Below are positions 5,006 to 38,764 of a stretch of 64,000 nucleotides of DNA, piece after piece (the stretch's first letter is position 1; every line of letters begins with the position of its first letter). The position numbers and the translations under genes are program-made. The DNA comes from Gammaproteobacteria bacterium (GTDB lineage: Bacteria > Pseudomonadota > Gammaproteobacteria > Eutrophobiales > Eutrophobiaceae), in assembly GCA_965208655.1 (NCBI GenBank), contig CBDBPJ010000003.1, forward strand, positions 551,790 through 615,789, written 5' to 3'. The notes under the pieces were generated by a model. It did no database searches. It was not told where the DNA came from and was given only the letters and a program-made list of their open reading frames with translations.

Positions 5006-5030
5006 GATTACCCCCTCGGGCACGGCGCAT

Positions 5031-5447
5031 TTAATCCATGAGGCCGATGTGGTGAGCGTGGAACGGGTTGTCGATAATGGTCTTCCAGGTGCCGTCCGGC
5101 TGCCGCTTGACCACGTTGCCGTCATAGGATGTCACAAAAACCTCTTCGCCATCGGCCGAGGTGCCCCTGATTTCCCATTTCAATGTAAAAAATGCAACGT
5201 CATCAGCCTCGACAAACTGCATCGCTTCCACTTTCAGTTTCGGTTTAATGGCCTGGAACTGTTCGAGTGCCTGACGAATATTTTCCAGCCCGGTCAGTGC
5301 GGGTTTGCCGGGTTCCTGTACGAACACGGCGTTATCGTCGTACAAGGCCATCGCTTTATCCAGGTTGCCTTCATTCATCGCTTGCTGGAACAATTCATCC
5401 ACGCGCCGCGCCGTGCGTGGTCTCTCATAGGTACTGTCTTTATTCAT
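5031..5447 (-). CDS. NTF2/SnoaL-like (DUF4440-type) small protein
   Basis: ~139 aa from ATG MNKDSTYER; fold-level resemblance to SnoaL/ketosteroid-isomerase-like proteins. Confidence 0.45.
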   Translation of the reverse strand: MNKDSTYERPRTARRVDELFQQAMNEGNLDKAMALYDDNAVFVQEPGKPALTGLENIRQALEQFQAIKPKLKVEAMQFVEADDVAFFTLKWEIRGTSADGEEVFVTSYDGNVVKRQPDGTWKTIIDNPFHAHHIGLMD

Positions 5448-7602: not shown

Positions 7603-8985
7603 ATGACAGAGCTTGCCAGAAGCACAAATGAATGGCAACAGGCCGATCTCATCAATTACCTTCACCCGTTTACGGATTACAAGGCATTGCTGGACGAAAA
7701 AGCGCTTGTGATCACGCGCGGGAAAGGTTGCTACGTCTGGGACAGTGACAATAACAGGTACCTGGACGGCCTCGCCGGCCTCGCCTGTGTCAATATCGGT
7801 TATGGCCGGACCGAACTCGGACGGGTTGCTGCTGCGCAAGTGGCGGAGTTGAGCTACTTCAACAGTTTTTTCAAGTCGACGAATCCAGCGGCCATAAGGT
7901 TGGCCGAGAGACTCGTTGACATAACGCCGGATGGATTGAACCACGTCTTCTACGCCAACTCCGGTTCCGAGGCAAACGATACGGCGTTGCGCATGGTAAG
8001 ACAGTACTGGATGCTGGAAGGCCGGCCGGAAAAGCAGACGGTCATCGCCAGGGAAATGGCCTATCACGGCAGTACCGTGGCAGCCGGAGCATTATCCGGT
8101 ATGCCGCCTATGCATGAACAGGCCGCGGTAGTACCGGATATCCAGCATATCCAGTGTCCCTACCAGTTTCAGTACGGCCGGGACATGAACGAGGAAGCGT
8201 TCGGGTTGATCGCTTCGCGCTGGCTCGAAGACAGGATACTGGAAACGGGTCCTGAGAAAGTGGCGGCATTCTTTGCCGAACCGGTGCAGGGCGCCGGCGG
8301 CGCCAAGATTCCGCCGCGGAATTATTTCAAGGAGATTGGCAGGATATGCAGGAAATACGATGTCCTGCTGGTTATCGACGAGGTGATTACCGGGTTTGGC
8401 CGGACCGGGAAGTGGTTCGCCAGCGACCTCATGCAGATAGAACAGGTAGACTTGATGTGTATAGCCAAGGGGATTACCTCAGGTTACCTGCCGCTCTCAG
8501 CGGTCATGGTCGGTGACCGGGTGGCTGATGCCTTGATCGAAAAAGGTGGGGAGTTCTTTCATGGATTTACCTATTCCGGGCATCCGGTCAGTTGTGCGGT
8601 GGCGCTGGAAAATCTCCGTATCCTTGACGAAGAGGAGATAATCCTGGAGGTGGAAGGGAAAACCGGGCCCTACCTGAAGCAGCGCCTGGAGGCGTTGTCC
8701 GGTTCGTCGATGGTAGGAGAAGTACGCAGTTGCGGCATGATCGGCGCAGTGGAACTGGTCCGGGATAGCAAGACAATGGAACCGATTGCCGATGAAATGG
8801 AGGAAGTTGAGCAATACACGGACGTATTTCGCGACCTGTGTCTTGAACAGGGCATCATCGTACGCCCGATAGGCTCGACGATCATGCTGTGCCCGCCGTT
8901 GATTATAACCGAGCCGGAAATCGATTTTCTGGTGGATAAAATGCAGATTGCCCTGCACGGATTTGAGAAGGTTATCCCGGGGTAA
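7603..8985 (+). CDS. Class-III (omega) aminotransferase, PLP-dependent
   Basis: 460 aa; LVIDEVITGFGRTG motif and overall aspartate-aminotransferase-family-III pattern; divergent from the FAD oxidoreductase. Confidence 0.85.
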   Translation: MTELARSTNEWQQADLINYLHPFTDYKALLDEKALVITRGKGCYVWDSDNNRYLDGLAGLACVNIGYGRTELGRVAAAQVAELSYFNSFFKSTNPAAIRLAERLVDITPDGLNHVFYANSGSEANDTALRMVRQYWMLEGRPEKQTVIAREMAYHGSTVAAGALSGMPPMHEQAAVVPDIQHIQCPYQFQYGRDMNEEAFGLIASRWLEDRILETGPEKVAAFFAEPVQGAGGAKIPPRNYFKEIGRICRKYDVLLVIDEVITGFGRTGKWFASDLMQIEQVDLMCIAKGITSGYLPLSAVMVGDRVADALIEKGGEFFHGFTYSGHPVSCAVALENLRILDEEEIILEVEGKTGPYLKQRLEALSGSSMVGEVRSCGMIGAVELVRDSKTMEPIADEMEEVEQYTDVFRDLCLEQGIIVRPIGSTIMLCPPLIITEPEIDFLVDKMQIALHGFEKVIPG

Positions 8986-9699: not shown

Positions 9700-12600
9700 C
9701 TAAAAGGAATAAGTAAAACCCAGCTTGAAGATGCGCCCCAGGGGGTTGTGGGTGAACGCGTCGTAGTTCAGGTCTTCGCCGGCGTAGGGCGGGTCTTCAT
9801 CGGTGAGGTTGAGCAGCGTTGCCCACAGGTTCAACCCGTCTTCCTTCACGGCCCAGTGAAAATGCAGGTCATGGGTCAGGTGGGCGTCGATCCTGATATT
9901 GTCCTCTACGTTGTCATAACCGTTGACGTATTTTGCCTCGTAGCGCAGGTTGAAGCCGCGCCAGGCGTAGTTCGCGTGCCACAGCATTTTCCATTCCGTC
10001 AGGGTACGGGCAAGAGGCGTTTCGTAGTTAAACCGCCCCAGTGCATTAAAGGAATTGCCCAGTTCCCATGAGCCGATGTCAAATGACAGGATACGGGTGC
10101 CGGAGACCTTGAGTTCCATATCTCCCGGGCCCGCGGGGAAGCGGTAACTGCCGGTGAAATCAATGCCGTCCGTCTCGACGTCGGGACCATTGACGATATT
10201 GACTTCAATAGCCTGCAGGTTTGCCAGGCTGGTGGCCTCGCCGAAGCGTATCCGCTGCAGGTAGGCAGGGTCGCCCGCATCGCAGTCCCCGTTCGGACAG
10301 GCGAGTTCCAGCACCCGGGGAAACGGTTCGACGACCAGGGGATCGGAGAACGAGTACGACCAGTAATCGAGTGAAACGCTGAGATCGTCGTTATCAGCCA
10401 GCAGGCCATCCTGGTTCAGCAACAGTCCGACGTTGTACGTAACTGCCGATTCCGGGTCCAGGCCGGGGTTGCCCTTGATGATCAGGCTTTTGAATGCTCC
10501 CGTTGCAGCCACGTAGCGCAGCGAATGTACGGAATTTCCGCTGACGGTCTGGTTAAGTGTCGGCCCGCGGAAGGCGGTGCTGACTGAACCGCGCAGGGCC
10601 AGGTTGTCGGAAATATGCCAGTGCAGGACGGCTTTCGGGTCCAGGCTGGCGCCGGTGCCGCTGCCGTAATCCTCGTAGCGCAATGACAGTTGCGTATTGA
10701 TGTCGTAGCCCAGGGGTAAATGCAGTTCGCCGAAGACCGAGTAGATGTCGCGGTTTTCATCGACGGTGTAATGCGGCGGCAGGTAGCCGAACACACCGCT
10801 GCGTTCCGCCTCGGGACAATCGGTAATACCGGGTCCCGCCGGACAGGGATTGATGCTGCCGTCATTCAGGGACCCCGGTATGGGGCCGTTTTCGAAGGTT
10901 TCCCGGCGCCACTGGGCGCCCAGTGCGAAATCCACCTCGTTCCCCAGTAACTGGAACGGAGTCGCGCCGCTGGCAATGCCTTCCAGCACCAGTAACGAAG
11001 TCTTGCCCTTGATGATGCGGTCGGTGAGCAGGTAATCGAACAGGCGCCGGTTATCCAGATCGGGGTTGAAATCCGGGTTTTCGTAATACTGCGCATCCGG
11101 AACCTGGGCGTGGGCGCCGTACATGCCGTTGGAGAACGGACTCCAGTACATACAGTTTCCCCTGCCTGCGTGCTGTTGCAGGGTTGCCAGGTCGAATTCA
11201 AGCCTGCCATCGACATACCGGTTCGGCACCTCCTGTTCACATTCGATACCACCCAGGCCTTGCAGCGCCCGTTTATCGCGATAGTTCATGACGTCCGCTT
11301 TTCTTATCCTGCGGGTTGATGAAGACCAGGTCGCAGAGGTGGTGAAGTCCAGTTTCCCGAACTGACCGTCCAGGCCGATAGCCCAGCGGGTGAGCCTGGA
11401 TTTAACCGGTTCGGCCCGTAACGGGCCGTCCTGGCCGTAAGAGCGGCCCAGCACCCAGCCCACGCTGTCCCAGGCATCCCCGGACCAGCCGCAGCGGCTC
11501 TTGTCGTCGCAGAAGGCATAGGGACCGTAAGTTTCCGGGTATTTCATGGCCATATCGACCAGGGCCGGGTTGTTCGCCCTGAGCGAGCGGTCCGGGGCGA
11601 TCACGCGGTTCGGCGGATACGAGGGCGAGGTATTCCAGTCCGGCACGCTGCTTTCGCTGTACAGGAATTCCCCGCTGAGGGTCGCGGTATCACCGAGTTC
11701 CCAGGATGCCTCGGTGAAACTCTGCCAGCGCCGGGTTTTCTCGACCAGGTTATCGAATGGGGTGTACTGGAAGCGGCAGCGTTTATTACCGCTGGTCGGC
11801 GCACCGCCCAGGGCTGCACAGTTTGGGTCGATGATACCGTTCGTATTGACGTCCGTGGTGGTGCCGGGCACGAATGTGGCAGGCCTGCCCGTGGACGACC
11901 AGCCGCCTTTCGGGTTTTCCGCGTAAGGGCGGATGGCCCAGTCGCGCTTGTATATCTCAAGCTCGCCGCGGCGGATGCCGCTTGCCGACGTGGTGATATG
12001 CCCTCTGCCGGCAAAATCAAAACCGCCGATGAATCCGATCTCGGTGTCCCCGCCTGAATCTTCTATTATCTTGTGGTTGGCGCTGAGTTCAATGCCGGAG
12101 AAATCGCTGCGGGTCCGGAAGTTCATGACACCCGCAATCGCGTCGGAACCGTAACTGGCCGCGGCGCCGTCACGCAGGAAATCGATGTTCTCCAGCGCGA
12201 TGAACGGCAGCATGTTCACGTCCACCAGCAGTTGCGTGTCGGCGCCGATGGGTATGGGTGACCAGGTGCTGCGGCGCCCGTTGATGAGCACCAGCGAGCG
12301 GCTTGGTCCAAGGCCGCGGATGTTAATGGTCGCCCGGTCCGGTCCTACCCCGGAGCCGCCGCCACCGCCCTGGAACCGGTCGGATTCACCGTCGGCGCCC
12401 TGGCTGAAGGGCAGGTTGAGGATCATGTCAAGGACGGTGGGCGACCCCTGGTAGCGCAGTTCATCCCGATCCAGGCTTGTGACCGGACTCAAAGCTTCTT
12501 CCGGGTCCATCCTGATGTGGGAACCGATAACGACGATCTCTTCGATAACTTTTTCTGCTTGTACCTGTGCGGGAACCGCAGAGGTGAATAACAGGGTAAT

Positions 12601-12708
12601 GCAGAGTGTGATAATCCGGCAGACGTAAGTTTGCCTTGAAGTAAGATAAAACAGCCGGTGCAGGTAATGGTCCTGCCGCCTACAGCTTGTCTGCCCTGCT
12701 TGCATGGC
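9700..12708 (-). CDS. TonB-dependent outer-membrane receptor (large, ~1000 aa)
   Basis: Signal peptide; plug/barrel pattern; canonical C-terminal ...GFTYSF. Start is uncertain: ATG candidates at 12756 or 12708 overlap the upstream gene's 3' end, and a CTG further in is possible. Confidence 0.8.
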   Translation of the reverse strand, partial: AMQAGQTSCRRQDHYLHRLFYLTSRQTYVCRIITLCITLLFTSAVPAQVQAEKVIEEIVVIGSHIRMDPEEALSPVTSLDRDELRYQGSPTVLDMILNLPFSQGADGESDRFQGGGGGSGVGPDRATINIRGLGPSRSLVLINGRRSTWSPIPIGADTQLLVDVNMLPFIALENIDFLRDGAAASYGSDAIAGVMNFRTRSDFSGIELSANHKIIEDSGGDTEIGFIGGFDFAGRGHITTSASGIRRGELEIYKRDWAIRPYAENPKGGWSSTGRPATFVPGTTTDVNTNGIIDPNCAALGGAPTSGNKRCRFQYTPFDNLVEKTRRWQSFTEASWELGDTATLSGEFLYSESSVPDWNTSPSYPPNRVIAPDRSLRANNPALVDMAMKYPETYGPYAFCDDKSRCGWSGDAWDSVGWVLGRSYGQDGPLRAEPVKSRLTRWAIGLDGQFGKLDFTTSATWSSSTRRIRKADVMNYRDKRALQGLGGIECEQEVPNRYVDGRLEFDLATLQQHAGRGNCMYWSPFSNGMYGAHAQVPDAQYYENPDFNPDLDNRRLFDYLLTDRIIKGKTSLLVLEGIASGATPFQLLGNEVDFALGAQWRRETFENGPIPGSLNDGSINPCPAGPGITDCPEAERSGVFGYLPPHYTVDENRDIYSVFGELHLPLGYDINTQLSLRYEDYGSGTGASLDPKAVLHWHISDNLALRGSVSTAFRGPTLNQTVSGNSVHSLRYVAATGAFKSLIIKGNPGLDPESAVTYNVGLLLNQDGLLADNDDLSVSLDYWSYSFSDPLVVEPFPRVLELACPNGDCDAGDPAYLQRIRFGEATSLANLQAIEVNIVNGPDVETDGIDFTGSYRFPAGPGDMELKVSGTRILSFDIGSWELGNSFNALGRFNYETPLARTLTEWKMLWHANYAWRGFNLRYEAKYVNGYDNVEDNIRIDAHLTHDLHFHWAVKEDGLNLWATLLNLTDEDPPYAGEDLNYDAFTHNPLGRIFKLGFTYSF

Positions 12709-13501
12709 GGTCCAGAAAGTCACCCAGGATCGTGTTAAACAGTCCGGGTGCTTCAATATTGGTTAAATGACCTGCACCCTCTATCAGTGTCAACTCCGAT
12801 CCGGGTATGGCGTCCGCCAGTATCCGGCTTTCAGACACGGGCAGCACCTTGTCTTCTATCCCTGCAATGATGAGCACAGGCAAGTTAATCTCCGGCAGGA
12901 TTGCTCTGAAATCCGTGGTTACCACTGCTTTTAACGCCTGGATATAAGGCCCGGTTCGAACAGCCGACAGGGATGCAAGCAGGCGCCGGCGGACATATTC
13001 CGTGGCTTTGGAACCGGTCAGCACGGTGATCATTTTTGGCGCAAGGTCGGCCGGTGTCAGTCCTTCCTGCAACGGTTTCAATCTGGGAGCCAGAAATTCC
13101 CGTCTGTCCGCCTCGCCGGCGGCGCCGAACCCCTGTGATGTATCCGCCAGCGTCAATGTTGCCACCCGGTCTGCATGGCGGCCATAGAAGTCCTGGGCGA
13201 TCATGCCGCCCATGGACAGTCCGACCAGGTGCGCGGTGTGTACGCCCAGATGATCCAGCAGGGCGTTGAGATCGTCGGCAAAGTCTGAAAATTTCAGCGG
13301 CTCATCCGGGTCGTCGCTGTCGCCGTAGCCCCGGGCATCCCAGGCAACCGTGCAATAGCGGTTGCTCAATCCGGCCTGCTGTTCAGCCCAGTTGGTTCGA
13401 TTACCGCCGATGCCGTGCATGAAGACGACAACCGGACCGGCTCCCCCTCTCTCATACGCCAGTTTCAGGGCGCCATTACGATAGTGCCGTAAAACACGCA
13501 T
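12680..13501 (-). CDS. Alpha/beta hydrolase (3-oxoadipate enol-lactonase-like)
   Basis: HGIGG ... GLSMGG nucleophile elbow; 273 aa. Confidence 0.75.
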   Translation of the reverse strand: MRVLRHYRNGALKLAYERGGAGPVVVFMHGIGGNRTNWAEQQAGLSNRYCTVAWDARGYGDSDDPDEPLKFSDFADDLNALLDHLGVHTAHLVGLSMGGMIAQDFYGRHADRVATLTLADTSQGFGAAGEADRREFLAPRLKPLQEGLTPADLAPKMITVLTGSKATEYVRRRLLASLSAVRTGPYIQALKAVVTTDFRAILPEINLPVLIIAGIEDKVLPVSESRILADAIPGSELTLIEGAGHLTNIEAPGLFNTILGDFLDRHASRADKL

Positions 13502-13516
13502 CTGCTGTCACACCGT

Positions 13517-13924
13517 TCAGCTGTCCGGGAGCAGGGCGATGACCTCGACTTCCAGCATCAGTTCCGGGACGACCAGGGCGGAGACCTGTACGCCGGTGCT
13601 GCAGGGCTTGTGATCACCGAAGTATTCCCTGCGTACCTCGAAGTAATCGGAGACTTTATCGTGGTCCGTGATATCGACAGTAAAAAACGTGGTCATCTTG
13701 ACCACGTCCTGAAAGCCAGACCCTGCTTCCTGCAGAATACCTCTTATATTTTCAAAAACCTGGCGGGTCTGTTGACGCAGGTCGCCGATACCGACGACGT
13801 TGCCGTCTGCGTCAAACGGGACCTGTCCGGAAAGAAAAACCAGGTTGCCTGTCCGGATACCCTGGGACAGTGGAAAATTTTCATCCCACCCCCAGCCTGG
13901 GTCTATGTATTGCATTTTGCTCAT
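13517..13924 (-). CDS. ridA: RidA/YjgF/L-PSP-family enamine/imine deaminase
   Basis: 135 aa; VFLSGQVP motif region and overall RidA pattern; start overlaps the hyuB stop (ATGA). Confidence 0.75.
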   Translation of the reverse strand: MSKMQYIDPGWGWDENFPLSQGIRTGNLVFLSGQVPFDADGNVVGIGDLRQQTRQVFENIRGILQEAGSGFQDVVKMTTFFTVDITDHDKVSDYFEVRREYFGDHKPCSTGVQVSALVVPELMLEVEVIALLPDS

Positions 13925-15690
13925 GCCGGTGTGCTCCCCTGTGTTGCCGGGTCTGCGGTGAGGGACGCGCGCAGGGTTTCGGTAGCCGTCTCGTCAATGG
14001 ACATTGTCACGGGATCAATTACCACGCCGTAGTCCCGCGTCGCGCCCTCGATGGAAACGTACTCATCCACGACATCCTGCAGTACCGCGTGTACATCTCT
14101 GGCGAGCGGGTCTCCCCAACCGCCGCCGCCGCCGCTTTGCGCGTACATGATCTCGCCGGGTTGTTGCGCATAGTCCGCCTTGGCGACCCGTACCTCTTCC
14201 TCGTTGTCGCCACCATAGTCAAGGACAACGTGATTGCCCGCCGCTTCCTTGCCGCCGGCAAAACCCATCAACGGACGCCGGCAGGCCTGGACCTGGATAA
14301 AATTGATCACCGGGTCCGTGGTGCTCATACGCAGCATCTGGTGGGCCGGTGAACCGCGCCATTTGCCGGGCGCCGCACTGTCGGTACTGTATTCATTCTG
14401 GTAATACAGGAACGGATACATCACTTCCTGCAACTCGAACGACGGGATGCGCAGGGAAGCATGAGGCGCCGAGTATCCGCCCCAACCGTCCGTGCCGCAG
14501 GCGCCGCCGCTGGAGGTCGGTGTGGTTGAGTAGTCAAAACTGACGTACATCTGGTTATCATATTGCGAATTCAACCCGAAAACGGTATTGATGGTCAGGT
14601 CGATGAATGCCGAGCCGGTTTTTTCCGGAACGATCTTTTCCAGGGTTTTCATTACAGCCTGGCCGATATCACTGCCGATGCACAGCGTTGAATTGCCCAC
14701 CGGCGCCGGCGGCAACGGGTTAATCACGGTACCCTCCGGCGCGATCACCTCGATCGGTCTGAAAAACCCGGAGTTCAGCGGCACATCCGGCATCACTACG
14801 GAAAATTCGGTAAATACCCAGGATAAGGTGTTGCCCTTGACGCTGTTGACGAACCCCTTGGTCTGGGGGTGAGTGCCGGTGAAATCCACCGTGCATGCGT
14901 CCCCTTCAACGTTGATGGTGACGTCCACGTTGATATCGATGCCGCCGTTGAAATCGTGTTCGAGGATACTTCTCCCCTTGTACTCGCCATCCGGCCAGGA
15001 AGAGATTTCGGCGCGCACCTGGCGTTCGCTGTAATTCAGGATGTAATCCACCGACTCCAGCACCGTATCCAGGCCATACTTCTCCACCAGCCGGACGATC
15101 CTGTCTTCGCCAACCTTGCAGGCGCCGATCATCGCGTTGAGATCCCCTTCCATGGTGTCAGGGAGGCGATTGTTGCCTGCCAGCAGGTTGACGATGTCGC
15201 GGCGCATTTCCCCTTTTTCGCAGATCTTGACGGGCGCCAGGCGAAAACCCTCCTGCCAGATTTCCGTAGCCAACGAGTTGTACCCCCCTGGTACGGGGCC
15301 ACCCACTTCGATAAAGTGCGCGCGTACAGCGGGAAAAAAAACGGGCTTGTTATGGTAGAACACGGGCTTCATCAGGGTCCAGTCAGGGATGTGACTGCCA
15401 CCGGAATAGGGGTCGGTGGCCAATACGATGTCCCCTTCATTGAGGTTGTATTTGAACGACTTTAACAGTGTTTCAACCGAATGGACGGACGCATAAATAT
15501 GGATGGGTTGCGAGTTTGCCCTGGCCAGCAGGCTGACGTTCTTGCCGTCCGAGTAAAACACGCCGGTGGAATAATCATGGGCCTCGCTGAAAACAGTGGA
15601 AACGGAGGTGTTCTCCATGGTTTTGCTTATTTCTTCCGATACGGTTTCCAAGTATTCGCGTATGATTTCAGCCGTGATCACGTCAATCAT
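13921..15690 (-). CDS. Hydantoinase B/oxoprolinase-family subunit (HyuB-like)
   Basis: TDPYSGGSH and GGGGGWGDPL motifs; start placed at MIDVITAEII, overlapping the upstream gene's stop by 8 nt. Confidence 0.85.
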   Translation of the reverse strand: MIDVITAEIIREYLETVSEEISKTMENTSVSTVFSEAHDYSTGVFYSDGKNVSLLARANSQPIHIYASVHSVETLLKSFKYNLNEGDIVLATDPYSGGSHIPDWTLMKPVFYHNKPVFFPAVRAHFIEVGGPVPGGYNSLATEIWQEGFRLAPVKICEKGEMRRDIVNLLAGNNRLPDTMEGDLNAMIGACKVGEDRIVRLVEKYGLDTVLESVDYILNYSERQVRAEISSWPDGEYKGRSILEHDFNGGIDINVDVTINVEGDACTVDFTGTHPQTKGFVNSVKGNTLSWVFTEFSVVMPDVPLNSGFFRPIEVIAPEGTVINPLPPAPVGNSTLCIGSDIGQAVMKTLEKIVPEKTGSAFIDLTINTVFGLNSQYDNQMYVSFDYSTTPTSSGGACGTDGWGGYSAPHASLRIPSFELQEVMYPFLYYQNEYSTDSAAPGKWRGSPAHQMLRMSTTDPVINFIQVQACRRPLMGFAGGKEAAGNHVVLDYGGDNEEEVRVAKADYAQQPGEIMYAQSGGGGGWGDPLARDVHAVLQDVVDEYVSIEGATRDYGVVIDPVTMSIDETATETLRASLTADPATQGSTPA

Positions 15691-17452
15691 TGTCGTATTT
15701 CTCCGGGCGATAGCCATTCACATCCTGCTCTTTTCTCAGTTCGGCGGTACGGGCGGTGTCGATTTGCAACGTCCCAGGATCAACAATGACAGCATATTGT
15801 TCCTCAGCCGCTTTAAGGGATACGTAACCATCCAGTACGTCTGCCAGTACCTGCTCCGGGTTCCTGGCCATGGGATCGCCCCAGCCGGCGCCGCCGCCCA
15901 TCCTGATACTGAGATCGGCGCCCTGTCCGAGCAACTGGTCCACGTAGGCGTTCTCAACGTTTATTTCCGCAGCACCGGAATGTACCAGCACGGAATTGTC
16001 CATGCCTGTGGTTCCTCCGGCAAATCCGGCTGCCTGCTGGCGCGGGATGACACAGGCTGTTAAATAGAACTCATCCGGATCCGGGTCGGGCAATTCAATG
16101 CACGCCTCCGTTCCGGGACTGCCGCGCCATTGCCCGGCGCCGGCCGAATCCGTCACGTATTCCAGCTTGCGGATTTCCCCGTCGACCTCCGCTTCAAACA
16201 TCTCAATCGACGGCAGGGGAGTCGTAGAGGAAATACCGGGCATGCCCCAGCCGTCCCGTCCGTCCGCGCCGCTGCAGCCGCCCTGGGTAAAGCGGGCATA
16301 GTCGGTAAATGCCAATTGCTCGACGGTAAAGCCGTTGCGTATGCCGCGCCGGATCATGTATATCAGCATGGCATTCCCGGCCACGTTGGCAACTTTTTCC
16401 GGAACAAGGCCGGACAGGGCATCGGTGACCGCCAGCGCCAGTTCGGTGCCGACATGGGATGCCGACCAGCCCGTCGGCGCCGGTATGCGGGCATTCACCA
16501 GGGAACCTTCCGGAGCAACCAGGTCGACACAACGCAGGCTGCCCGCATTCTTCGGAATATCGCCTCCCAGCGAAGCAAAAACAGGTAACAATGCATAACT
16601 CAGGGCCTGCGCCGGCGTAGTGTTTATAAAGCCGGTGGACTGGGCATCGGTTTCTGAAAAGTCCAGGAGCAGCCGGCCGTTTGCCGTTTCCAGTCTGACG
16701 CGGATATTGAGGTTTTCCCGTCCCTGGCAATCATGCATCAGCCTGCAACTGCCTTGCGCACTGACGTCTCCCCAACCCTTCAGCAGCGAACTGAAACGGA
16801 TTTCTGCGTAATCGACCGACCAGTCCAGCGCATCCAGTACCACCCCGGCGCCATAGTCGTGAAGCAACTCCGTCATACGCGCCTGGCCGACCCTGACAGC
16901 AGAAAACATGGCTTCCAGGTCCAGCCTCAAAGCCTTTGGATTGCGGCTGTTCAGGGCGATGGTGTTCAACGTGTCTTTGAGCAATTTCCCGTCACGGTAG
17001 ATCTTGACGGGTGGGCAACGCACACCTTCTGCCCAGATGTCGGTGGCCCTGGGATTGTAGTTTCCGCGCAAGTCACCGCCGATATCCTCCGTATGTGCAC
17101 GCACGCCCACGTACAGGACTATCTCCTCTTCAAAACTCACCGGCGCAAACGCGGTAAATTCCTGCAGACGCGAACCGCCGCCATAGGGATCATTGGTGAG
17201 CAGGATATCTTCTCCTCCCAGGTCGTACTGGAAGTAGTCAAGCACGGCGGTAGCGGTATCCGCCATGGATGAAAGGTATAACGGGTTGTCGATTGTGACC
17301 AGCGATCCTGCCTCGGTAAACAAGCCGTTACAGCATTGGTTTGCCTCGCTGACGGTAGTCGAGCAGGCTGTGTTTATCAGTGTGGCGCGCATTTCCGCCA
17401 CAACCGCGTCGAACTTGCTGCGCAGGACCTCGCCGGTAATTTTGTCTACCAT
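15683..17452 (-). CDS. Second, paralogous hydantoinase B/oxoprolinase-family subunit (HyuB-prime)
   Basis: NDPYGGGSRLQE and GGGAGWGDPM motifs; lies in tandem between hyuA and hyuB. Confidence 0.85.
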   Translation of the reverse strand: MVDKITGEVLRSKFDAVVAEMRATLINTACSTTVSEANQCCNGLFTEAGSLVTIDNPLYLSSMADTATAVLDYFQYDLGGEDILLTNDPYGGGSRLQEFTAFAPVSFEEEIVLYVGVRAHTEDIGGDLRGNYNPRATDIWAEGVRCPPVKIYRDGKLLKDTLNTIALNSRNPKALRLDLEAMFSAVRVGQARMTELLHDYGAGVVLDALDWSVDYAEIRFSSLLKGWGDVSAQGSCRLMHDCQGRENLNIRVRLETANGRLLLDFSETDAQSTGFINTTPAQALSYALLPVFASLGGDIPKNAGSLRCVDLVAPEGSLVNARIPAPTGWSASHVGTELALAVTDALSGLVPEKVANVAGNAMLIYMIRRGIRNGFTVEQLAFTDYARFTQGGCSGADGRDGWGMPGISSTTPLPSIEMFEAEVDGEIRKLEYVTDSAGAGQWRGSPGTEACIELPDPDPDEFYLTACVIPRQQAAGFAGGTTGMDNSVLVHSGAAEINVENAYVDQLLGQGADLSIRMGGGAGWGDPMARNPEQVLADVLDGYVSLKAAEEQYAVIVDPGTLQIDTARTAELRKEQDVNGYRPEKYDND

Positions 17453-17456
17453 GGCA

Positions 17457-19520
17457 TTACTGGAAGCTTTCGATAATGTAAGTCTGATAGTGGTCGAGCA
17501 TAGCCTCTTGTTGCGGATAGATGACTATCGTCGTTTCCGGTTCTTCGATTATGGCAGGACCCGTAATGAGGTTTCCGGGCCTGACTTTCGTGCCGTCGTA
17601 GATACGTGTGTCGACAAACCCGACCCCGTCAAAACCCACCCGGCGCGTTTCCTTGTATGCCGCAGACGGGTCCTCGGATTCGAACGGCGTACTGTGGTAT
17701 TTGAGAGTATCGCGGGTGCCGACCAGGTCCGCACGGACACTGAGTACTTCCACCATCTGGTCGGGACGTTTGAAAGAGTAAAGCTGCTCATGGGCCTCAT
17801 GGAAGTCCTGAAAGGTCTTGTTCAGGTTCAGTTCCGTCACCCGTTTTGTCCTCGAGCGGATCGGAACGGTGACTTCGTGGGTCTGGCCGACGTAGCGCAT
17901 GTCTATGGCGCGGTGGGTCTGGGTCTCGACGATGCCCGGGGTTTGTTTGAGCAACTCCAGGGCGTCGTTCTCAATCTCCTCGTAGATGGCATTCAAATCA
18001 TCGATGCGGATGGTGTTGGAACGACTGATGAAACTCTTGACCTTGGATATTTTGAAATTCGATATGATGCAGCCCAGTGCGCAGAATACGCCCGCGTTTT
18101 TCGGCACCAGGATCGTATTGACGCCCAGGTCCTTGGCCTGTACTCCCACGTGAACGGGACCTGCGCCCCCGAAAGCCATCAGGGCGAAGTCCCTGGGGTC
18201 GCGCCCGCGGGAAACCGAAACGTAACGGATGGCGTTGGTCATGGCGCTGTTGGAGATGCGGAATATCCCGCTTGCCGCTTCCTCGACCGACATGCCCAGG
18301 GGCTGTGCAATCTCAGTTTCGATCGCCTTGTGTGCGGCTGCTGTGTCCAGGTTGATTTCCCCCCCGCCGATAGCGCCCGGATTCAGGTAGCCCAGTACCA
18401 GGTTGGCATCGGTGACTGTGGGTTTGACACCGCCGCGACCGTAGCAGGCAGGTCCCGGGTCGGATCCCGCGCTCCTGGGTCCTACCCTGAGTGCGCCGCC
18501 TTCATCGATCCAGGCTATGGAACCCCCGCCGGTGCCGATGGAATGTATGTCTATCATGGGCGTGGCGACGCGGTAGCGGCTGACCCAGGAATCAACGCCG
18601 ATATCGGGCCGGCCATCCTTGATCAGGCAGACGTCGTAACTGGTTCCGCCCATGTCCACTGCGATCAGGTCCTTGTACCCGGACCATTCACCCACTGCAA
18701 CCGCCGCGGTGACGCCGCCGGACGGCCCTGACTGGATGAGTTCGACCCCGCGTTTGCAGCAGAAGTCAGTATCCATGACGCCGCCGTTGGAAAGCTTGAT
18801 GAACAGGCGGCCGCCGAAACCTGCTTCATTCAGGCTGACTTCCAGCTGGCGCAGGTAATTATCGAGTTTCGGACTGAGGTAAGCGTTCAGTATGGTCGTA
18901 CTGAAACGATCGAACTCCCGCACCTGGGGCAGGACTTCGCAGGACAGGGAAACATAAGCATCCGGATATTCCTCCCGGATGACCTCCCTGATGCGGAATT
19001 CGTGTTCATTGTTTTTGAATGAGAACAACAGGCATACCGCGATTGATTCGACCTCCAGTTGCTTTAAATTACTGACTGCGTCGCGTACTTCCTGCTCGTT
19101 GAGGTCAAGTACGATCTCGCCCAGGTGGTTGATGCGCTCAGTGACACCCAGGCGTCTTTGCCTGGGTACGATGGGGTAGGGCGCGGGCAGGCGGATATCA
19201 AAATGATCTTCCTTGTAGCCGGTACGCAGTTCGATAATGTCGCGAAAGCCTTTTGTGGTGATGAGCCCGGTTTTGGCGCCGGCGTATTCCAGCATGGCGT
19301 TGGTTACCACCGTCGTGCCCAGTACCAGGTTGTCGGCATTTTTGAGAAAGTCCTGTGAATCCAGGCTGAAATGCTCTGCGGATGTGCGGATGGCATTCAT
19401 GATGCCGACGGTTTCATCGTTGGGCGTGGTCAGCACCTTGCCGCTGACGATGTCATCCGCGCTGCGCACGACAAAATCGGTAAACGTCCCACCGACATCG
19501 ATGCCAATTTCATAACTCAT
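17457..19520 (-). CDS. Hydantoinase A/oxoprolinase-family subunit (HyuA-like)
   Basis: N-terminal IGIDVGGTFTDF ASKHA-fold signature; 687 aa. Confidence 0.9.
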   Translation of the reverse strand: MSYEIGIDVGGTFTDFVVRSADDIVSGKVLTTPNDETVGIMNAIRTSAEHFSLDSQDFLKNADNLVLGTTVVTNAMLEYAGAKTGLITTKGFRDIIELRTGYKEDHFDIRLPAPYPIVPRQRRLGVTERINHLGEIVLDLNEQEVRDAVSNLKQLEVESIAVCLLFSFKNNEHEFRIREVIREEYPDAYVSLSCEVLPQVREFDRFSTTILNAYLSPKLDNYLRQLEVSLNEAGFGGRLFIKLSNGGVMDTDFCCKRGVELIQSGPSGGVTAAVAVGEWSGYKDLIAVDMGGTSYDVCLIKDGRPDIGVDSWVSRYRVATPMIDIHSIGTGGGSIAWIDEGGALRVGPRSAGSDPGPACYGRGGVKPTVTDANLVLGYLNPGAIGGGEINLDTAAAHKAIETEIAQPLGMSVEEAASGIFRISNSAMTNAIRYVSVSRGRDPRDFALMAFGGAGPVHVGVQAKDLGVNTILVPKNAGVFCALGCIISNFKISKVKSFISRSNTIRIDDLNAIYEEIENDALELLKQTPGIVETQTHRAIDMRYVGQTHEVTVPIRSRTKRVTELNLNKTFQDFHEAHEQLYSFKRPDQMVEVLSVRADLVGTRDTLKYHSTPFESEDPSAAYKETRRVGFDGVGFVDTRIYDGTKVRPGNLITGPAIIEEPETTIVIYPQQEAMLDHYQTYIIESFQ

Positions 19521-19763
19521 TACAGCGGTCCCCTGGTTAGTGGCACAGCAATAGGTTTTCTGCTCAGTTTCAGGATTCTACGGTACAAGGATGTATAGTT
19601 AAAATCAATGTAGTAAAAATACGTCAGTGGTAATAATACCGATTGATTTCTGAATTTTATGATACCATTGGACACGGGTGAGCGGAATCACATAACTCAT
19701 CCTGGTCGGTATTCGCGAAGTAAAAATTAATAATCGATTAGCTTCAGTGGGGGGCGGTTCGTT

Positions 19764-21929
19764 ATGCTCAAGTCAAGTAATTGCGCAAAATATCTTGCCA
19801 TGTTTTCGTGTGCGGCTTTATTCCTGTTCGATGCCGTTGCGACCTACTCGCAGGAGAAAGACAAGGGTGTCCTGGAGGAAGTGATAGTGACTGCGCAGCG
19901 GCGCACGGAGAATCTGCAGGATGTTCCCCTGGCGATCACCTCTTTTTCTGCCAGGAACCTCAGTGATAAAGGGGTCTATGACCTGTTTGGTCTCACGTCC
20001 CTGGCTCCTAACCTGGACATAGTGCAGAATAACGGTCGTGTGAAGGTATTTATCCGCGGCATCGGCCTCACGCTGGATAATTCGGGTTCCGAGGGCGCGG
20101 TTGCGGTACACCAGGACGGTGTCGTCATCGCCTATCCGAACTCGCAGGGCACCTCGTTTTACGATATTGAACGAATAGAGGTATTGCGCGGACCGCAAGG
20201 TACCTTGTTCGGCAGGAATGCAACGGGCGGCACGCTCAATATCATTACCCGGGGGCCGACGGAAGAGGTCAGTGTCAATGCCCGCGCCAACTTCGGCAAC
20301 TATGAGACACGGGAATTCGAACTCGGCGTCGGCGGGCCCCTGGTAGCAGACAAGTTATCGGCGCGTGCTGCGTTCTACAAGGTAGACAGGGACGGCTTCG
20401 GTGAAAACAGTTTTAACGGCCAGGATATCGACGATCGCGACGAGGTCGCGGCGCGCGGCAAGCTGAAGTGGCAGGTGACTGACCAGTTCACCGTGGTTGC
20501 GGCGATTGATTACTGGGACGCGGATGACTCGGGCGCGGTCGTGCATACCTTCGGCTCGGCGTTTGGTGAGTTACAGGGGGTTGTCGAGGGAGGTAACGGT
20601 AAACCGAGTTTCAGGGATATAGCAAGTGAAACCGAAGAAAGCCGGGATATGAGAACCTATGGCTACTCCCTGGATGTCACCTATGAAATCAACGAAAACT
20701 TCACCTTCAAGTCCCTGACGGGTTACCGCGATGAGCACAGCGTAAAGAAATCACAATATGACGGTACGGACAATCCCGGCTGGCCTTCCACCAATGTCAA
20801 TTCCGGCGTCCATTTCAGCCAGGAATTTCAATTGAACTGGGATACGGACAGGATCAATAGCGTGTTCGGGCTGTACTACTTCGATGATGACGTGTTTGTC
20901 ACCAATACGGTACCCTTCCAGTTCGGGATAAATCTGCCCGGAGACATCTTTGATGAACGGGGGCACGCAAAGACGGAAGCCTACGCGGCATTCGGCAGCC
21001 TGACCTGGGCGGCGACGGAACGGCTTAACCTGACTGCCGGTGTGCGCTACAGCGATGAAAAGAGAACGACGGAGAGTTCTTTCCAGCTCAAGATTCAACT
21101 GTTTGGCCTGGATTTGTTTATTCCGCTGAACAACCAGCGTAAATATGACGCCTGGACGCCGCGCTTCTCCATTGATTATGCCCTGACCGACGATGCCATG
21201 GTTTATTTCACCGCGTCCCGCGGCTTTAAAAGCGGGCAGATACTGCCGGGTAACACGGCCCCGCCGCTCAATCCCGAATTTATCTGGAGCTTTGAAGGGG
21301 GCATAAAGTCCGTGCTGTTTGACGACCGGCTGAAAGCCAACCTGTCGGCCTTCTATTACGATTACACGGATCTGCAGGTGAGCCAGTTGCTGGGCCTGTC
21401 GTTTACGCTTACCAATGCCGCGGCGGCCGACGCTATCGGAGTTGAGGCGGAACTTGCCTACCTGCTGACGGAGAATACCCAGCTGGAACTGGTCTACGGC
21501 TACCTGGATAATGAATTTACCGAATTTTTCACCCAGGATCCGATATTTCCGGAACTGGGCGTGTTGAACCTGAAGGGCAATCCGTTGCCCAATTCTCCCA
21601 AACACATGTTCACCCTGAGTGCGAGCCATACATACCCTAGCAGCCTTGGTGATTTCGACTTCCGGGTGGACTGGCGCTGGCGGGATACGGCCTATTTTGA
21701 CCCGTATAAACGGGATGTAGCCTCCCAGGACTCCTATTCAAATGTCAGCATGAGGGGCACGTTTCAACCGCGTAACCAGAACTGGTCTATCTCGGCCTGG
21801 GTCAACAACCTGACCAACAAGGATGCGTATATAACCAACTATATCAGCCTGGCCAGTGGCGGCTTCCCCCGTAACGGCGATATCAACGACCCGAGAACCT
21901 ACGGCATAGAGTTGCGTTACGAGATGTAA
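19764..21929 (+). CDS. TonB-dependent outer-membrane receptor
   Basis: Signal peptide; EEVIVTAQRR TonB box/plug region; 721 aa; unusual C-terminal residue Met. Confidence 0.8.
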   Translation: MLKSSNCAKYLAMFSCAALFLFDAVATYSQEKDKGVLEEVIVTAQRRTENLQDVPLAITSFSARNLSDKGVYDLFGLTSLAPNLDIVQNNGRVKVFIRGIGLTLDNSGSEGAVAVHQDGVVIAYPNSQGTSFYDIERIEVLRGPQGTLFGRNATGGTLNIITRGPTEEVSVNARANFGNYETREFELGVGGPLVADKLSARAAFYKVDRDGFGENSFNGQDIDDRDEVAARGKLKWQVTDQFTVVAAIDYWDADDSGAVVHTFGSAFGELQGVVEGGNGKPSFRDIASETEESRDMRTYGYSLDVTYEINENFTFKSLTGYRDEHSVKKSQYDGTDNPGWPSTNVNSGVHFSQEFQLNWDTDRINSVFGLYYFDDDVFVTNTVPFQFGINLPGDIFDERGHAKTEAYAAFGSLTWAATERLNLTAGVRYSDEKRTTESSFQLKIQLFGLDLFIPLNNQRKYDAWTPRFSIDYALTDDAMVYFTASRGFKSGQILPGNTAPPLNPEFIWSFEGGIKSVLFDDRLKANLSAFYYDYTDLQVSQLLGLSFTLTNAAAADAIGVEAELAYLLTENTQLELVYGYLDNEFTEFFTQDPIFPELGVLNLKGNPLPNSPKHMFTLSASHTYPSSLGDFDFRVDWRWRDTAYFDPYKRDVASQDSYSNVSMRGTFQPRNQNWSISAWVNNLTNKDAYITNYISLASGGFPRNGDINDPRTYGIELRYEM

Positions 21930-21951
21930 AAGGCAGAACTGACCAGGGTCG

Positions 21952-23415
21952 TTGGCTTTGTGCGCTGATACTGCCGGTTCTCAGGAAAGGAGATCCTTCT
22001 TACGGCAGTTGTTGCCGGCAGGAATATTACTGCTCTCTGTCTGTTCCGGCCATTCATGGGCCGGGGAAATACTGGCGCTGACAGGCGCCAGGATTATAGA
22101 CGGTAACGGTGGTCCAGCGCTGGAAGATGCTGTCGTAATAGTCCAGGGACAAAAAATTTCCGCAATCGGTCCCGCATCCGTCATCCCCGCAAACGCGCGT
22201 GTAATGGACCTTGCCGGCAAGACTCTCTTGCCGGGTCTCATTGATGCGCATATCCACATCGGCGGCAGTGGTGGCGGGTCTGCAGACCCGCGTGAATTCA
22301 CCCCTGCTGCTGTTGAAAACAGCCTCCTGAGTTACCTGAAGTTCGGCGTGACCAGTATTTACGATATGGCTGCACATCCCAGCCTCAATGCTATGAAAAC
22401 AGCGCTGGAGAGCGGTGAACTGACGGGTCCGAGGCTGTACGGCAACGGTTTCGGTATCACCGCCCCCGGTTCGCATCCCATCCGCCTGATTACCGAACTC
22501 GGACTCCTGGACTACCTGGGCCCTTTCTATTTCCAGGTTGACAGCGTGGAAGATGCTCAAGAGGCGGTACGCAGGATCAGTGCGGAGCAGGTTGACGGCA
22601 TCAAGCTGTTCCACTCGCGCGTCGAAGCCGGGACCACCCGGTTTGACGCCGACATGGACAAGTTAAAGCCCGCCATCCTCCGCACTGTGATTGAGGAAGC
22701 CCACGCCCGCAGACTGAAGGTTTATGCGCATACATCATTTCCCAGCGAGGCCGGGGAATTTGTTGAAGCCGGCGGTGATGTCATCGTGCACAGCATTCAC
22801 ATGGCCGAGACCGGCGCCCGGGACGTATTCGAATTGATGGCCGAACGTGATGTTGCCTATATCCCCACCCTCGCGGTGTTTGAAGGCGGCTATTCAACGA
22901 AACCCGGCTCTTTTGCTTCCCCACATCTTCATGACAAGGTATGGGATGTCCTGCTCGCGTCGATCACCGCTCCGGGCAGCGTGGTCCTGGCTTCCCGGAC
23001 TGTGCCCGGTCTTCTCAATGACAGGGAGCGCAGCCTGGAAATCTCGATGGCGAACCTGGCGCGGGCGCTGCAGGTTGGCGTCAAAATCGCAATGGGGAGT
23101 GACGCGGGCAATGCCGGGATGCTGCACGGCGCCACAGTACTGCGCGAACTGCAGTTGATGAACGAAGCGGGTATGACGCCGATGCAGGTGATCGTGGCTG
23201 CCACCCGGAACGGGGCCGAGGTCATCGGCCGGGGAGAGGAACTGGGCACTGTCGAGGCCGGCAAGCTGGCTGATATCATCGTCGTCAACGGCGACCCGTT
23301 ACAGGACCTGTCTGCCCTGGGCAATGTCGAACTGGTGGTGAAAAACGGCAAGATTATCAACCCCGGGGAACTGGAGTTCAAGGAAGTACCACAACCAACT
23401 GGGGACGGGTTTTAA
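21952..23415 (+). CDS. Tat/Sec-secreted amidohydrolase-family protein, paralogous to 3620-5005
   Basis: RRSFLRQLL N-terminus; GLIDAHIHIGGSG and GKLADIIVVNGDPLQD amidohydrolase motifs. Confidence 0.75.
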   Translation: MALCADTAGSQERRSFLRQLLPAGILLLSVCSGHSWAGEILALTGARIIDGNGGPALEDAVVIVQGQKISAIGPASVIPANARVMDLAGKTLLPGLIDAHIHIGGSGGGSADPREFTPAAVENSLLSYLKFGVTSIYDMAAHPSLNAMKTALESGELTGPRLYGNGFGITAPGSHPIRLITELGLLDYLGPFYFQVDSVEDAQEAVRRISAEQVDGIKLFHSRVEAGTTRFDADMDKLKPAILRTVIEEAHARRLKVYAHTSFPSEAGEFVEAGGDVIVHSIHMAETGARDVFELMAERDVAYIPTLAVFEGGYSTKPGSFASPHLHDKVWDVLLASITAPGSVVLASRTVPGLLNDRERSLEISMANLARALQVGVKIAMGSDAGNAGMLHGATVLRELQLMNEAGMTPMQVIVAATRNGAEVIGRGEELGTVEAGKLADIIVVNGDPLQDLSALGNVELVVKNGKIINPGELEFKEVPQPTGDGF

Positions 23416-23499: not shown

Positions 23500-24270
23500 T
23501 TAAAGTAATCTATTAATACTCTTGCTTAATTGTGCGAATATGAACTTGGGGAAAAACCGGCTCATGAACCAGAGCTGGTTAGCTACGCCAATGCGAATTT
23601 CGTAGTTATCTTTTGCAAAATCTTTCAGGAACGCCGCAACCATTTTTTCTACGGGCATTATCGGAACGCCTTTAATATCTTCTTCATCAAAGCCTCCTAA
23701 CATCCCTGTTTCGGTAAGAGGAGGGGCCAGTTCGAAGACCTTGATTGCTGTATTCCTTAATTGCGCTCTCAATGACAATGTATATGAGTGAATGGCGGCC
23801 TTGGTCGAACAATATACCGGAGTAATCGGCAGAGGGACAAATGCCAGCCCGGAGCTAACATTGACGATTGCGGGGTTGTTGTTGTGCCGCAATAGCGGCA
23901 GAAAGGCGTTGTTCATCAACATGGTCCCTTTCAGGTTAATATCGATTTCCTGCGTCAGATATGTTGCGGAAAGGTTGCCGCTGCGCAGGTTGAGCGCTTG
24001 CATGATGCCTGCATTATTGATCAGTATATTTAGATCGGGATAGTCTTTTACGGCCTGCTGGTGGAGTTTTTCTACGTCGCCGGGGTTACTGACGTCATTC
24101 CTGATTATCGTCACACCTCCCAGTTGTTGTTTCGCGTCCTGGAGTTTCTTCTCATCCCGCCCCGTAATAACGACCTTATTGCCCTTTAGTAAAAACTGCC
24201 TGGCCATCTCAAAACCGATACCGCTCGAACCGCCTGTAATCAGGATGGTGTTACCGGATAATTTCATCAC
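23500..24270 (-). CDS. Short-chain dehydrogenase/reductase (SDR)
   Basis: TGGSSGIG cofactor motif and YCSTKAA (YxxxK) catalytic motif; gene is notably AT-rich. Confidence 0.85.
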   Translation of the reverse strand: MMKLSGNTILITGGSSGIGFEMARQFLLKGNKVVITGRDEKKLQDAKQQLGGVTIIRNDVSNPGDVEKLHQQAVKDYPDLNILINNAGIMQALNLRSGNLSATYLTQEIDINLKGTMLMNNAFLPLLRHNNNPAIVNVSSGLAFVPLPITPVYCSTKAAIHSYTLSLRAQLRNTAIKVFELAPPLTETGMLGGFDEEDIKGVPIMPVEKMVAAFLKDFAKDNYEIRIGVANQLWFMSRFFPKFIFAQLSKSINRLL

Positions 24271-30839: not shown

Positions 30840-31047
30840 GGCTAATATCTTAAGCTTTGGGATTCCCGCTTTCAACTCTGCCCGGTACGGCCGCAACGCT
30901 TCCGGCAGGGCGCCAGGTTTATTTGATATGTAAAAAACAGGTATTATGGCCAAATCAACGTATGCCGGAAACGGGATCAGCATTCAGTTCTGTTCCACCG
31001 GAACCTTTCCGGAATACTGTGCAGTTTAATACAAACCAGGGTATCTC

Positions 31048-33129: not shown

Positions 33130-33137
33130 CCGTCATT

Positions 33138-38625: not shown

Positions 38626-38727
38626 CGGGTAATAATGTCAGTCGCAGTATTTGTTTATCACTGAAGGGATTATACGGAATCCGGACCTGGGATTCCCGGC
38701 ATCCAGTATTTCACGGGGCTGTTATTA

Positions 38728-38757
38728 TGTATACTGTACACAGATAATCCTTAGCCG
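38728..38757 (+). promoter_or_regulatory. Candidate extended -10 promoter (TGTATACT) for the TPP-enzyme gene
   Basis: tatgtatactgtacac about 30 nt upstream of the ATG at 38765; the same 11-mer tgtatactgta recurs at 43447-43457 upstream of the TRAP SBP gene. Confidence 0.3.
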
Positions 38758-38764
38758 GCATGTT

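Follow-up and report, generated by a model that had tools for sequence, protein, structure and literature searches.

A conserved three-gene hydantoinase-family system with a predicted pseudo-catalytic B-type subunit, linked to TonB-dependent receptors in a gammaproteobacterial genome

The published classification of the hydantoinase and ketone-carboxylase superfamily contains only the hydAB, acxABC and apcABCD(E) layouts, tells hydrolases apart from carboxylases by the length of the B-type subunit and by the gene for a gamma subunit, and describes a central dimer of B-type subunits that has been seen or predicted for acetophenone carboxylase (Apc), acetone carboxylase (Acx) and hydantoinase (Hyd) (PMC5214803). 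The window analysed here, a stretch of 64,000 nucleotides from a Gammaproteobacteria bacterium (contig CBDBPJ010000003.1, positions 551,790 to 615,789), contains the gene triad hyuA-hyuB'-hyuB, in which one A-type gene is followed by two diverged B-type genes. Judged from sequence, both its architecture and the pseudo-catalytic nature of one of its subunits, HyuB', are clear and general, and the triad belongs to a known enzyme family in a layout that is undescribed. The superfamily is large and poorly annotated, and its annotation would gain in precision from a fourth layout that is widely conserved and includes a dead B-type paralog.

Among solved structures and curated families, all three subunits come closest to the caprolactamase CapAB of Pseudomonas jessenii (PDB 6YRA), an ATP-dependent lactamase. 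The ATP-binding motifs of the ASKHA fold are defined for A subunits as DxGGTxTD, DxGGT and GxxPGP, each of the CapB metal ligands Asp41, His99, Asp102 and His124 is essential, and the enzyme is an A-B-B-A tetramer whose B-B core is formed through residues 129-174, with an A subunit on each far side (PMC8453981). The triad resembles CapAB in the ASKHA motifs of A, in B's metal ligands Asp-His-Asp-His, in the size of B, about 580-590 aa, and in having no gamma subunit, but CapAB is an (alpha-beta)2 enzyme of two genes, built on a B-B homodimer, whereas the triad adds a third gene, which encodes a B paralog without the metal site.

Two precedents for the layout had been named in the original prediction, an annotation made from the letters of the window, and neither of them holds for a duplicated B subunit: caprolactamase, cited there as a multi-paralog complex, is a plain (alpha-beta)2 enzyme (PMC8453981), and acetophenone carboxylase, cited alongside it, has two A-type paralogs and one B-type subunit (PMC5214803). 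The latter is the only characterised family member with a duplicated and diverged subunit in one complex, its core being formed by a central B-type dimer (PMC5214803); it duplicates the A-type kinase (ApcA/ApcC), both copies of which are thought to be active, whereas the triad duplicates B, with one copy lacking the catalytic site. Gamma and epsilon subunits are required in addition, and its beta subunit is longer, at 684 aa, than the B-type proteins of the triad, at 589-598 aa. Acetone carboxylase (AcxABC) has a downstream gamma gene and a B-type subunit of about 720-776 aa, neither of which is found at the triad. N-methylhydantoinase and 5-oxoprolinase (HyuAB and OplAB; fused form PDB 7HK5/9H03) share the two-module chemistry and fold and are the second-best PDB match for both B and B', yet they are two-gene or fused A-B systems with no B' partner, and their identity to the subunits of the triad is only 23-30%. 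Hydantoinases are given a layout of two genes, one alpha and one beta (PMC5214803), where the triad has three.

All three genes lie on the minus strand. hyuA (17457..19520) encodes 687 aa with the Pfam domains Hydant_A_N, Hydantoinase_A and Hydant_A_C, and by its coordinates is separated by a 4-nt gap from hyuB' (15683..17452, 589 aa; Pfam Hydantoinase_B, 1e-110), which in turn overlaps hyuB (13921..15690; Hydantoinase_B, 8e-139) by 8 nt (ATGATTGA). The open reading frame (ORF) of hyuB is open to 15717; its start is probably the ATG at 15690, because the ribosome-binding site GGAG lies 9 nt 5' of it, because it overlaps the stop of hyuB' and because the resulting N-terminus matches that of CapB and the start of HyuB'.

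The phosphate- and adenosine-binding motifs of HyuA are intact (DVGGTFTD, DMGGTSYD and GSDPGP). In HyuB the metal tetrad is whole, with D48, H109, D112 and H134 (in 598-aa numbering) found at the four positions in a HMMER alignment to CapB (6yra_B), and it is unvarying in 21 of 21 non-redundant lineages. The nearest solved structure to HyuB is CapB (9e-95), a far stronger match than Apc-beta (4e-35) or Acx-alpha (6e-06), matches to the latter being restricted to the C-terminal 60 residues with E-values of 1e-4 to 1e-8. The hydrophobic pocket of CapB is replaced in the HyuB alignment by polar or acidic residues (E38, Q60, N/D368, D/E386 and Q468), and the vicinal pair Cys410-Cys411 of CapB falls opposite a gap; because the pocket is polar or acidic where that of CapB is hydrophobic, these residues suggest a polar substrate. 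We reject an identity as caprolactamase, since the CapB pocket is not kept and all three subunits score far below the cut-off of 1000 bits for the NCBIfam caprolactamase equivalogs NF050156 and NF050157 (697.7 bits for A, whose best NCBIfam match is caprolactamase alpha, 377.4 for B and 240 for B').

HyuB' is 34% identical to HyuB over the full length (E = 4e-107), and HyuB is its best non-orthologous match. At the positions of the CapB ligands D41, H99, D102 and H124 it carries Gln39, Arg95, Glu98 and His120 in a HMMER alignment to the same CapB chain, and among orthologs these former ligand positions are variable, reading Q/E/R/A/H/L, R/K/G/T/S, E/D/T/F/H/S/N/Y and H/R/Q/P, respectively. In phylogenetic comparison B and B' form two separate monophyletic clades with matching internal topology, and other HyuBs, including the two extra copies in the window and the canonical HyuBs of related loci, fall outside both. 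That the best match of HyuB' outside its orthologs is the neighbouring HyuB fits an origin in an old tandem duplication.

The loss of its ligands has not been followed by loss of the gene. Among close relatives dN/dS is 0.11-0.15 for B', where A has 0.03-0.05 and B has 0.04-0.08, and an alignment of 20 B' orthologs with identities down to 42% retains 79 invariant columns. Pairwise distances show B' diverging about 1.6 times faster than B, and its distance matrix is correlated with those of A (r = 0.87) and B (r = 0.88), the value for A and B being 0.95. An AlphaFold2 (AF2) monomer model of B' has a confident HyuB fold (predicted local distance difference test score, pLDDT, 81; predicted template modelling score, pTM, 0.84), and its Foldseek matches are confined to chains of N-methylhydantoinase (NMHase), CapB, Acx-alpha and Apc-beta. 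It had been foreseen that a HyuB' without catalytic residues might be a decaying duplicate; the ligands are indeed gone, but decay is not borne out, since the gene is under purifying selection and has co-diverged with A and B. HyuB' is thus a predicted pseudo-catalytic subunit and not a second active site.

B' is full length everywhere except in a Spirochaetales metagenome-assembled genome (MAG) (L021, 1185-2367) and a deltaproteobacterial MAG (L022, 1847-3029). There the protein has only about 390 aa, aligns to residues 21-346 and has lost the C-terminal barrel domain, the gene still standing between hyuA and hyuB. A 670-aa relative of B' (P0028, 51% identical) carries a Hydant_A_C domain ahead of Hydantoinase_B and is either a gene-call merge of the end of hyuA with hyuB' or a true fusion. 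In their sources B' orthologs are named 'N-methylhydantoinase B' or, in the case of one ortholog, 'acetophenone carboxylase delta subunit'. PDB 9h03, the top Foldseek match, was deposited under the title 'NMHase, dihydrouridine', which suggests that members of the hydantoinase family can bind dihydropyrimidine nucleosides; Bmp-type nucleoside-like ATP-binding cassette (ABC) transporters stand beside the triad in locus L084.

The A-B'-B order was found at 23 genome loci (L001-L023), each species being represented in the scan by a single genome, and at six further metagenomic places, comprising five distinct loci and one listed without DNA. Near-identical loci, with B' proteins 90-97% identical, occur in uncultured Gammaproteobacteria MAGs whose isolate labels (APA, RHO3 and Plut) we take to point, perhaps, to sponge and coral metagenomes. 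Outside this clade the carriers are Binatia, a MAG with the label Planctomycetota, a Sphingomonadales MAG, Gaiellaceae and other Actinomycetes, Acidobacteria, Spirochaetales and a deltaproteobacterium, the species Caballeronia jiangsuensis, C. choica, Amycolatopsis jejuensis and Paraburkholderia domus, and several metagenomic contigs. The order recurs in Proteobacteria, Binatia, Acidobacteriota, Actinomycetota and Spirochaetota, and the A-B'-B arrangement is not a chance juxtaposition. At every triad locus beyond the clade of the window conservation is lowest in B'; the Caballeronia proteins, for instance, are 73% (A), 47% (B') and 70% (B) identical to those of the window. The 8-nt overlap between hyuB' and hyuB recurs in L079, L083 and the P0053 locus. 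Among PLSDB plasmids no triad was found, only distant HyuBs of less than 32% identity.

A three-subunit hydantoinase-family enzyme of unknown substrate had been predicted, and both the family domains and the widespread gene order agree with it; NCBIfam, Pfam, source names, PDB and papers yielded no close homolog to which a substrate has been assigned, and no function for the A-B'-B triad as such was found in these sources or in PLSDB. The carriers in culture are Caballeronia jiangsuensis MP-1, Caballeronia choica LMG 22940, Paraburkholderia domus and Amycolatopsis jejuensis, which makes the question open to experiment.

A second hyuA/hyuB pair, canonical and with about 27-38% identity to the subunits of the triad, often stands beside it (L011, L017, L083, L084, L085 and the P0053 locus), which hints at two ATP-dependent ring openings per pathway where it does so. 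In a close relative of the window (L007, 13530-17483) the operon is split by an insertion of about 4 kb between hyuB and the Rid gene that follows it; the insertion carries an AAA_16/STAND-NTPase-like ORF (397 aa) and a 573-aa ORF without Pfam match and may be a mobile or defence cassette.

With moderate confidence we interpret the three gene products as an ATP-dependent ring-opening enzyme for cyclic amides (lactams or ureides) of the hydantoinase/oxoprolinase/caprolactamase family. In such an enzyme HyuA, the ASKHA ATPase, would phosphorylate and so activate the amide carbonyl, the Asp-His-Asp-His metal site of HyuB would hydrolyse the activated ring, and HyuB' would act as a non-catalytic partner in a B-B' heterodimer replacing the B-B homodimer core, so that the complex would be asymmetric with one hydrolytic site per core. 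The ring-opened amino compound would then be handled by a Ser-variant Rid protein and a serine hydrolase, the polar and exogenous substrate having entered via TonB-dependent receptors (TBDRs), one of which, TBDR2, together with a periplasmic carboxypeptidase-like amidohydrolase, would probably release or trim it in the periplasm. Exchanges of hydrolase for isochorismatase and of Rid for aminotransferase at equivalent positions, described below, are the reason for proposing the order ring opening, second amide or ester hydrolysis, and removal of the amino group.

A B-B' heterodimeric core is the most likely arrangement by analogy with the tetramer of CapAB. The segment of B' equivalent to CapB 129-174 is its best-conserved region (0.72 compared with a mean of 0.57), and the N-terminal helix that contacts A is the second-best in B' (0.67; 0.82 in B). 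Residues 126-142 are the only internal segment of the B' model with a pLDDT below 50, which is to be expected because they belong to the interface and could become ordered on dimerisation. The gene order A-B'-B, kept from Gammaproteobacteria to Actinomycetota, Acidobacteriota, Binatia and Spirochaetota, and the 8-nt overlap shared by several loci also speak for a pairing of B' with B. More tentatively, and with something less than even confidence, we propose that the triad represents an ancient, obligately asymmetric A-B-B' class that spans phyla, has a dead B paralog in its beta-beta core and acts on a polar N-heterocycle or lactam that is so far unrecognised as a nutrient and that bacteria, sponge symbionts among them, import via dedicated TBDRs. 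If this is true, no pseudoenzyme subunit would have been described before HyuB' in the hydantoinase/ketone-carboxylase superfamily. The triad is also a natural experiment on the need for a B-B core and on half-of-sites function, and it points to a catabolic route, as yet uncharacterised, by which an exogenous ring compound containing nitrogen is broken down.

Several observations weigh against this interpretation. The metal tetrad of B' is whole in an Acidobacteria MAG (L020, 9979-11620; D-H-D-H) and nearly whole in L085 (9961-11746; E-H-D-H), both of them basal or divergent lineages, so B' may still be catalytic in some lineages, and because of these two orthologs its loss of the metal site may have been gradual or lineage-specific. 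The B' pocket and tunnel positions D59, N60, D386 and C468 (CapB numbering) are well conserved and could constitute a ligand-binding or regulatory site instead of a part of a pure scaffold. The conservation signal at the B' interface is modest, B being well conserved there too. The physical contact of B with B' is something that we infer, as is the co-transcription of the six genes of the operon, for which gene spacing is the evidence; promoter- and terminator-like matches are no commoner than in shuffled sequence. Finally, the case for a role of the Rid protein in deamination is weak.

The conserved pocket also bears on what we regard as an unlikely alternative, namely that HyuB' is neo-functionalised and has a metal-independent site of its own, so that two different B-type sites act in sequence. 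Such a site might hold the phosphorylated intermediate or bicarbonate/carboxyphosphate, carry out a second ring opening or serve for allosteric sensing. The strong conservation in the B' clade includes G339 along with the four positions already named, a DPYGGG motif beside the former metal site is invariant, the residue corresponding to His99 is Arg or Lys in most lineages and could bind an anion, and the tetrad retained in L020 and L085 would also be consistent with chemistry in B'. The four former ligand positions, however, vary freely, unlike what would be expected of conserved chemistry there, the B' of Spirochaetota and Deltaproteobacteria has dispensed with the barrel domain, and the faster evolution of B' relative to B also speaks against a second catalytic site.

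The presence of one hyuA for two B-type genes could alternatively mean that A alternates between B and B' to give separate AB and AB' enzymes of different specificities, and the A-contacting helix is fairly conserved in both B-type proteins. We consider this improbable: an AB' enzyme would be without a metal site, which CapB requires, and because B' and B strictly co-occur, have diverged together and overlap translationally, an obligate pair is a better fit than two independent enzymes.

An ATP-dependent carboxylase resembling acetone or acetophenone carboxylase and acting on a ketone or other CH-acidic compound is a very doubtful reading. Carboxylases do occur within the family, one B' ortholog bears an acetophenone carboxylase name, Foldseek finds Acx and Apc chains with template modelling (TM) scores of about 0.7, and bicarbonate is needed even by caprolactamase (PMC8453981). 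Nevertheless, the ORF list and domain search revealed neither a small gamma-like ORF within the operon nor an epsilon gene, there is one A-type gene and not two, both B-type subunits have about 590 aa and not 684-776 aa, the match to caprolactamase is far closer than those to Apc or Acx, Apc models score 94-388 bits against NCBIfam cut-offs of 1250-1500, and the neighbouring genes encode amide- and amine-processing enzymes. Subunit length, the missing gamma and epsilon genes, the single A gene and the strength of the CapB match are the reasons why hydrolase chemistry would be favoured over carboxylase chemistry.

That HyuB' is a functionless, decaying tandem duplicate, as its lost ligands and its faster evolution than A and B might suggest, is hardly credible and was rejected in view of its dN/dS, conservation and co-divergence, an ORF that is unbroken over its full length in those lineages examined that have a long B' (about 390 aa only in L021/L022), a cross-phylum architecture with congruent trees and a confidently predicted fold.

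Turning to the genes that follow the triad on the minus strand, hyuB overlaps by 4 nt with a Rid-family gene (13517..13924, 135 aa; Pfam Ribonuc_L-PSP), a 15-nt gap separates this from the gene of an alpha/beta-fold serine hydrolase (12680..13501, 273 aa; Pfam Abhydrolase_1), and the hydrolase gene overlaps with that of a first receptor, TBDR1. The ORFs and domains of all six packed, operon-like genes were confirmed where the original prediction had placed them, with a small correction to the start of the receptor gene, given below.

The Rid protein reads KPCST where YabJ and PH0854 read KPARS, having Ser in place of the catalytic Arg, and the Ser variant (motif P[AC]STGV) is shared by the window protein and all 13 operon-linked orthologs aligned. 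In RidA this residue, Arg105 in E. coli numbering, binds the carboxylate of the substrate, and imines are not hydrolysed without it; about 10% of RidA-subfamily proteins have Ser at the position (Niehaus et al., PMC4433059). A Rid-family protein is present where RidA had been named, whereas the accompanying argument that RidA implies an enamine or imine product is insecure, because the residue that imine hydrolysis needs is Ser. The protein scores 84 against a cut-off of 106 for TIGR00004.

The hydrolase has the nucleophile motif GLSMGG, together with candidate Asp (IEDKV) and His (GAGHL) residues that were chosen by eye and not by alignment, and in the PDB it comes closest to esterases and 3-oxoadipate enol-lactonase. 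It scores 161.5 bits against 255.85 for the NCBIfam model PcaD and 101 against 238 for RutD. Its earlier description as lactonase-like holds in the generic sense of an esterase/enol-lactonase-like protein, but it stays below every curated cut-off; it appears to be a competent serine hydrolase of unassigned specificity.

The same accessory families follow the ring-opening enzyme of the Rut pathway, where RutC is a Rid protein, RutD an alpha/beta hydrolase and RutB an isochorismatase; a Rid protein and a hydrolase follow the triad here, and an isochorismatase-family member does so in L085. RutC keeps the catalytic Arg, and the Rid protein of the window scores 68 against a cut-off of 169 for the RutC model. 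Among the annotated neighbours there are no RutA- or RutF-type genes. An identity as archetypal RidA, RutC or RutD was rejected on account of scores below the cut-offs and the change from Arg to Ser.

A hydrolase gene also follows the Rid gene in L010, L013, L014, L016, L018, L079, L080, L083 and the P0053 locus, and in L085 the isochorismatase-family hydrolase occupies its position. In L017, L019 and L084 a class III aminotransferase stands directly after hyuB, in the position of the Rid gene, and one is also found within the P0053 locus. The pathway of CapAB continues from the opened lactam with a class III aminotransferase (PMC6061476). Two possible accessory genes lie close to the operon in the window, one for a class III aminotransferase (7603..8985, plus strand; Pfam Aminotran_3), convergent with the TBDR1 gene, and one for a short-chain dehydrogenase (SDR; 23500..24270, minus strand; Pfam adh_short). 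An ortholog of the latter (66% identity) stands directly after the hydrolase in L010, and L083 and the P0053 locus have SDR genes too. Recurrent neighbours of the triad are TetR regulators, importers of the major facilitator superfamily or ABC type, SDRs, AMP-forming (CoA) ligases and a split thiamine pyrophosphate (TPP) decarboxylase, while a molybdenum hydroxylase and a Rieske/VanA-type oxygenase were each encountered in a single case.

A number of pathways were considered on the basis of such neighbours. A creatinine or N-methylhydantoin pathway, raised by the Amidohydro_1 and isochorismatase genes, was not adopted because the amidohydrolase of the window resembles carboxypeptidases and is exported by the Tat route, because the B of the triad lies closer to caprolactamase than to N-methylhydantoinase and because the window has separate canonical hyuAB pairs. 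Rut-like pyrimidine opening, 2-pyridone-type enamide opening, diketopiperazines and siderophore lactams, suggested by the molybdenum hydroxylase, the Bmp and ABC transporters, the split TPP decarboxylase and the Rieske/VanA-type oxygenase, were none of them consistently supported by the neighbouring genes.

The TBDR1 gene (9700..12705, minus strand; about 1000 aa), the last of the operon, is confirmed, but its start, previously placed at 12708, was misplaced by 3 nt: the ATG is at 12705, the ORF is open to 12756, and the alternative starts are GTG 12723 and TTG 12756 only. Its N-terminus is signal-peptide-like and is followed by ...AQVQA/EKVIEEIVVIGS. On the other side of hyuA, across a spacer of 243 bp (19521..19763), a divergent unit on the plus strand consists of TBDR2 (19764..21929, 721 aa) and an amidohydrolase with a twin-arginine translocation (Tat) signal, of the carboxypeptidase or amide-hydrolase type (21952..23415, 487 aa; Pfam Amidohydro_1). 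This pair and its AT-rich spacer, which had been predicted, are real, the GC content of the spacer being 41% compared with 56% for the whole window. Both receptors have the Pfam domains Plug and TonB_dep_Rec_b-barrel and signal-peptide-like N-termini, and neither of them reaches a curated substrate-specific TBDR model in NCBIfam. The N-terminus of the amidohydrolase has a twin-arginine motif, RRSFL, followed by a hydrophobic stretch, and its closest PDB entries are the L-arginine carboxypeptidase Cc2672, ochratoxinase-type amide hydrolases and Xaa-Pro dipeptidases.

TBDR1 is conserved in the sponge-associated clade (L001-L009). More widely, TBDRs adjoin the triad in the clade of the window and in L010, L014, L016, L083, L085 and the P0053 locus, though their types and orientations differ; homologs of TBDR2 are found beside the triad in L010, L014, L016 and L083, and a homolog of the amidohydrolase accompanies the receptor at L010 and L083. 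The idea of an exogenous substrate imported by a TBDR gains support from this recurrence of the linkage in distant lineages and from the amidohydrolase, which suggests an amide-cleaving step in the periplasm. No inner-membrane transporter is evident in the operon of the window. Within the spacer, the blocks TGGTATCATAAAAT and ATTGATTTT..GTACCGTAGAA are conserved among relatives, and the second of them includes the minus strand's only promoter-like site (19602-19575).

Elsewhere in the window, 8-15 kb from the triad, there are two convergent canonical hyuA/hyuB pairs, at 31048-34796 (plus strand) and 34875-38625 (minus strand), the HyuBs of which both have an intact D-H-D-H tetrad. They are flanked by genes of the tannase/feruloyl-esterase family (29208-30983 and 41758-43383) and by a full-length TPP enzyme (38651-40444). 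With the triad they bring the hydantoinase-type systems of the window to three, which fits the published enrichment of hyuA/hyuB COGs (clusters of orthologous groups) in sponge symbionts (PMC5649159).

Upstream of the operon region, three further minus-strand genes encode a MetE-like Meth_synt_2 protein (319-1350), a family that also neighbours the triad in L080, a second amidohydrolase (3620-5125), which is a paralog of the Tat-signal amidohydrolase, and an FAD/NAD-binding oxidoreductase (5534-7477) with an N-terminal Tat-like motif, TRRDFIGS. At about 50000-54000 the GC content falls to 0.43-0.49, compared with about 0.56 for the window, and only short ORFs are present; this stretch may be a foreign island.

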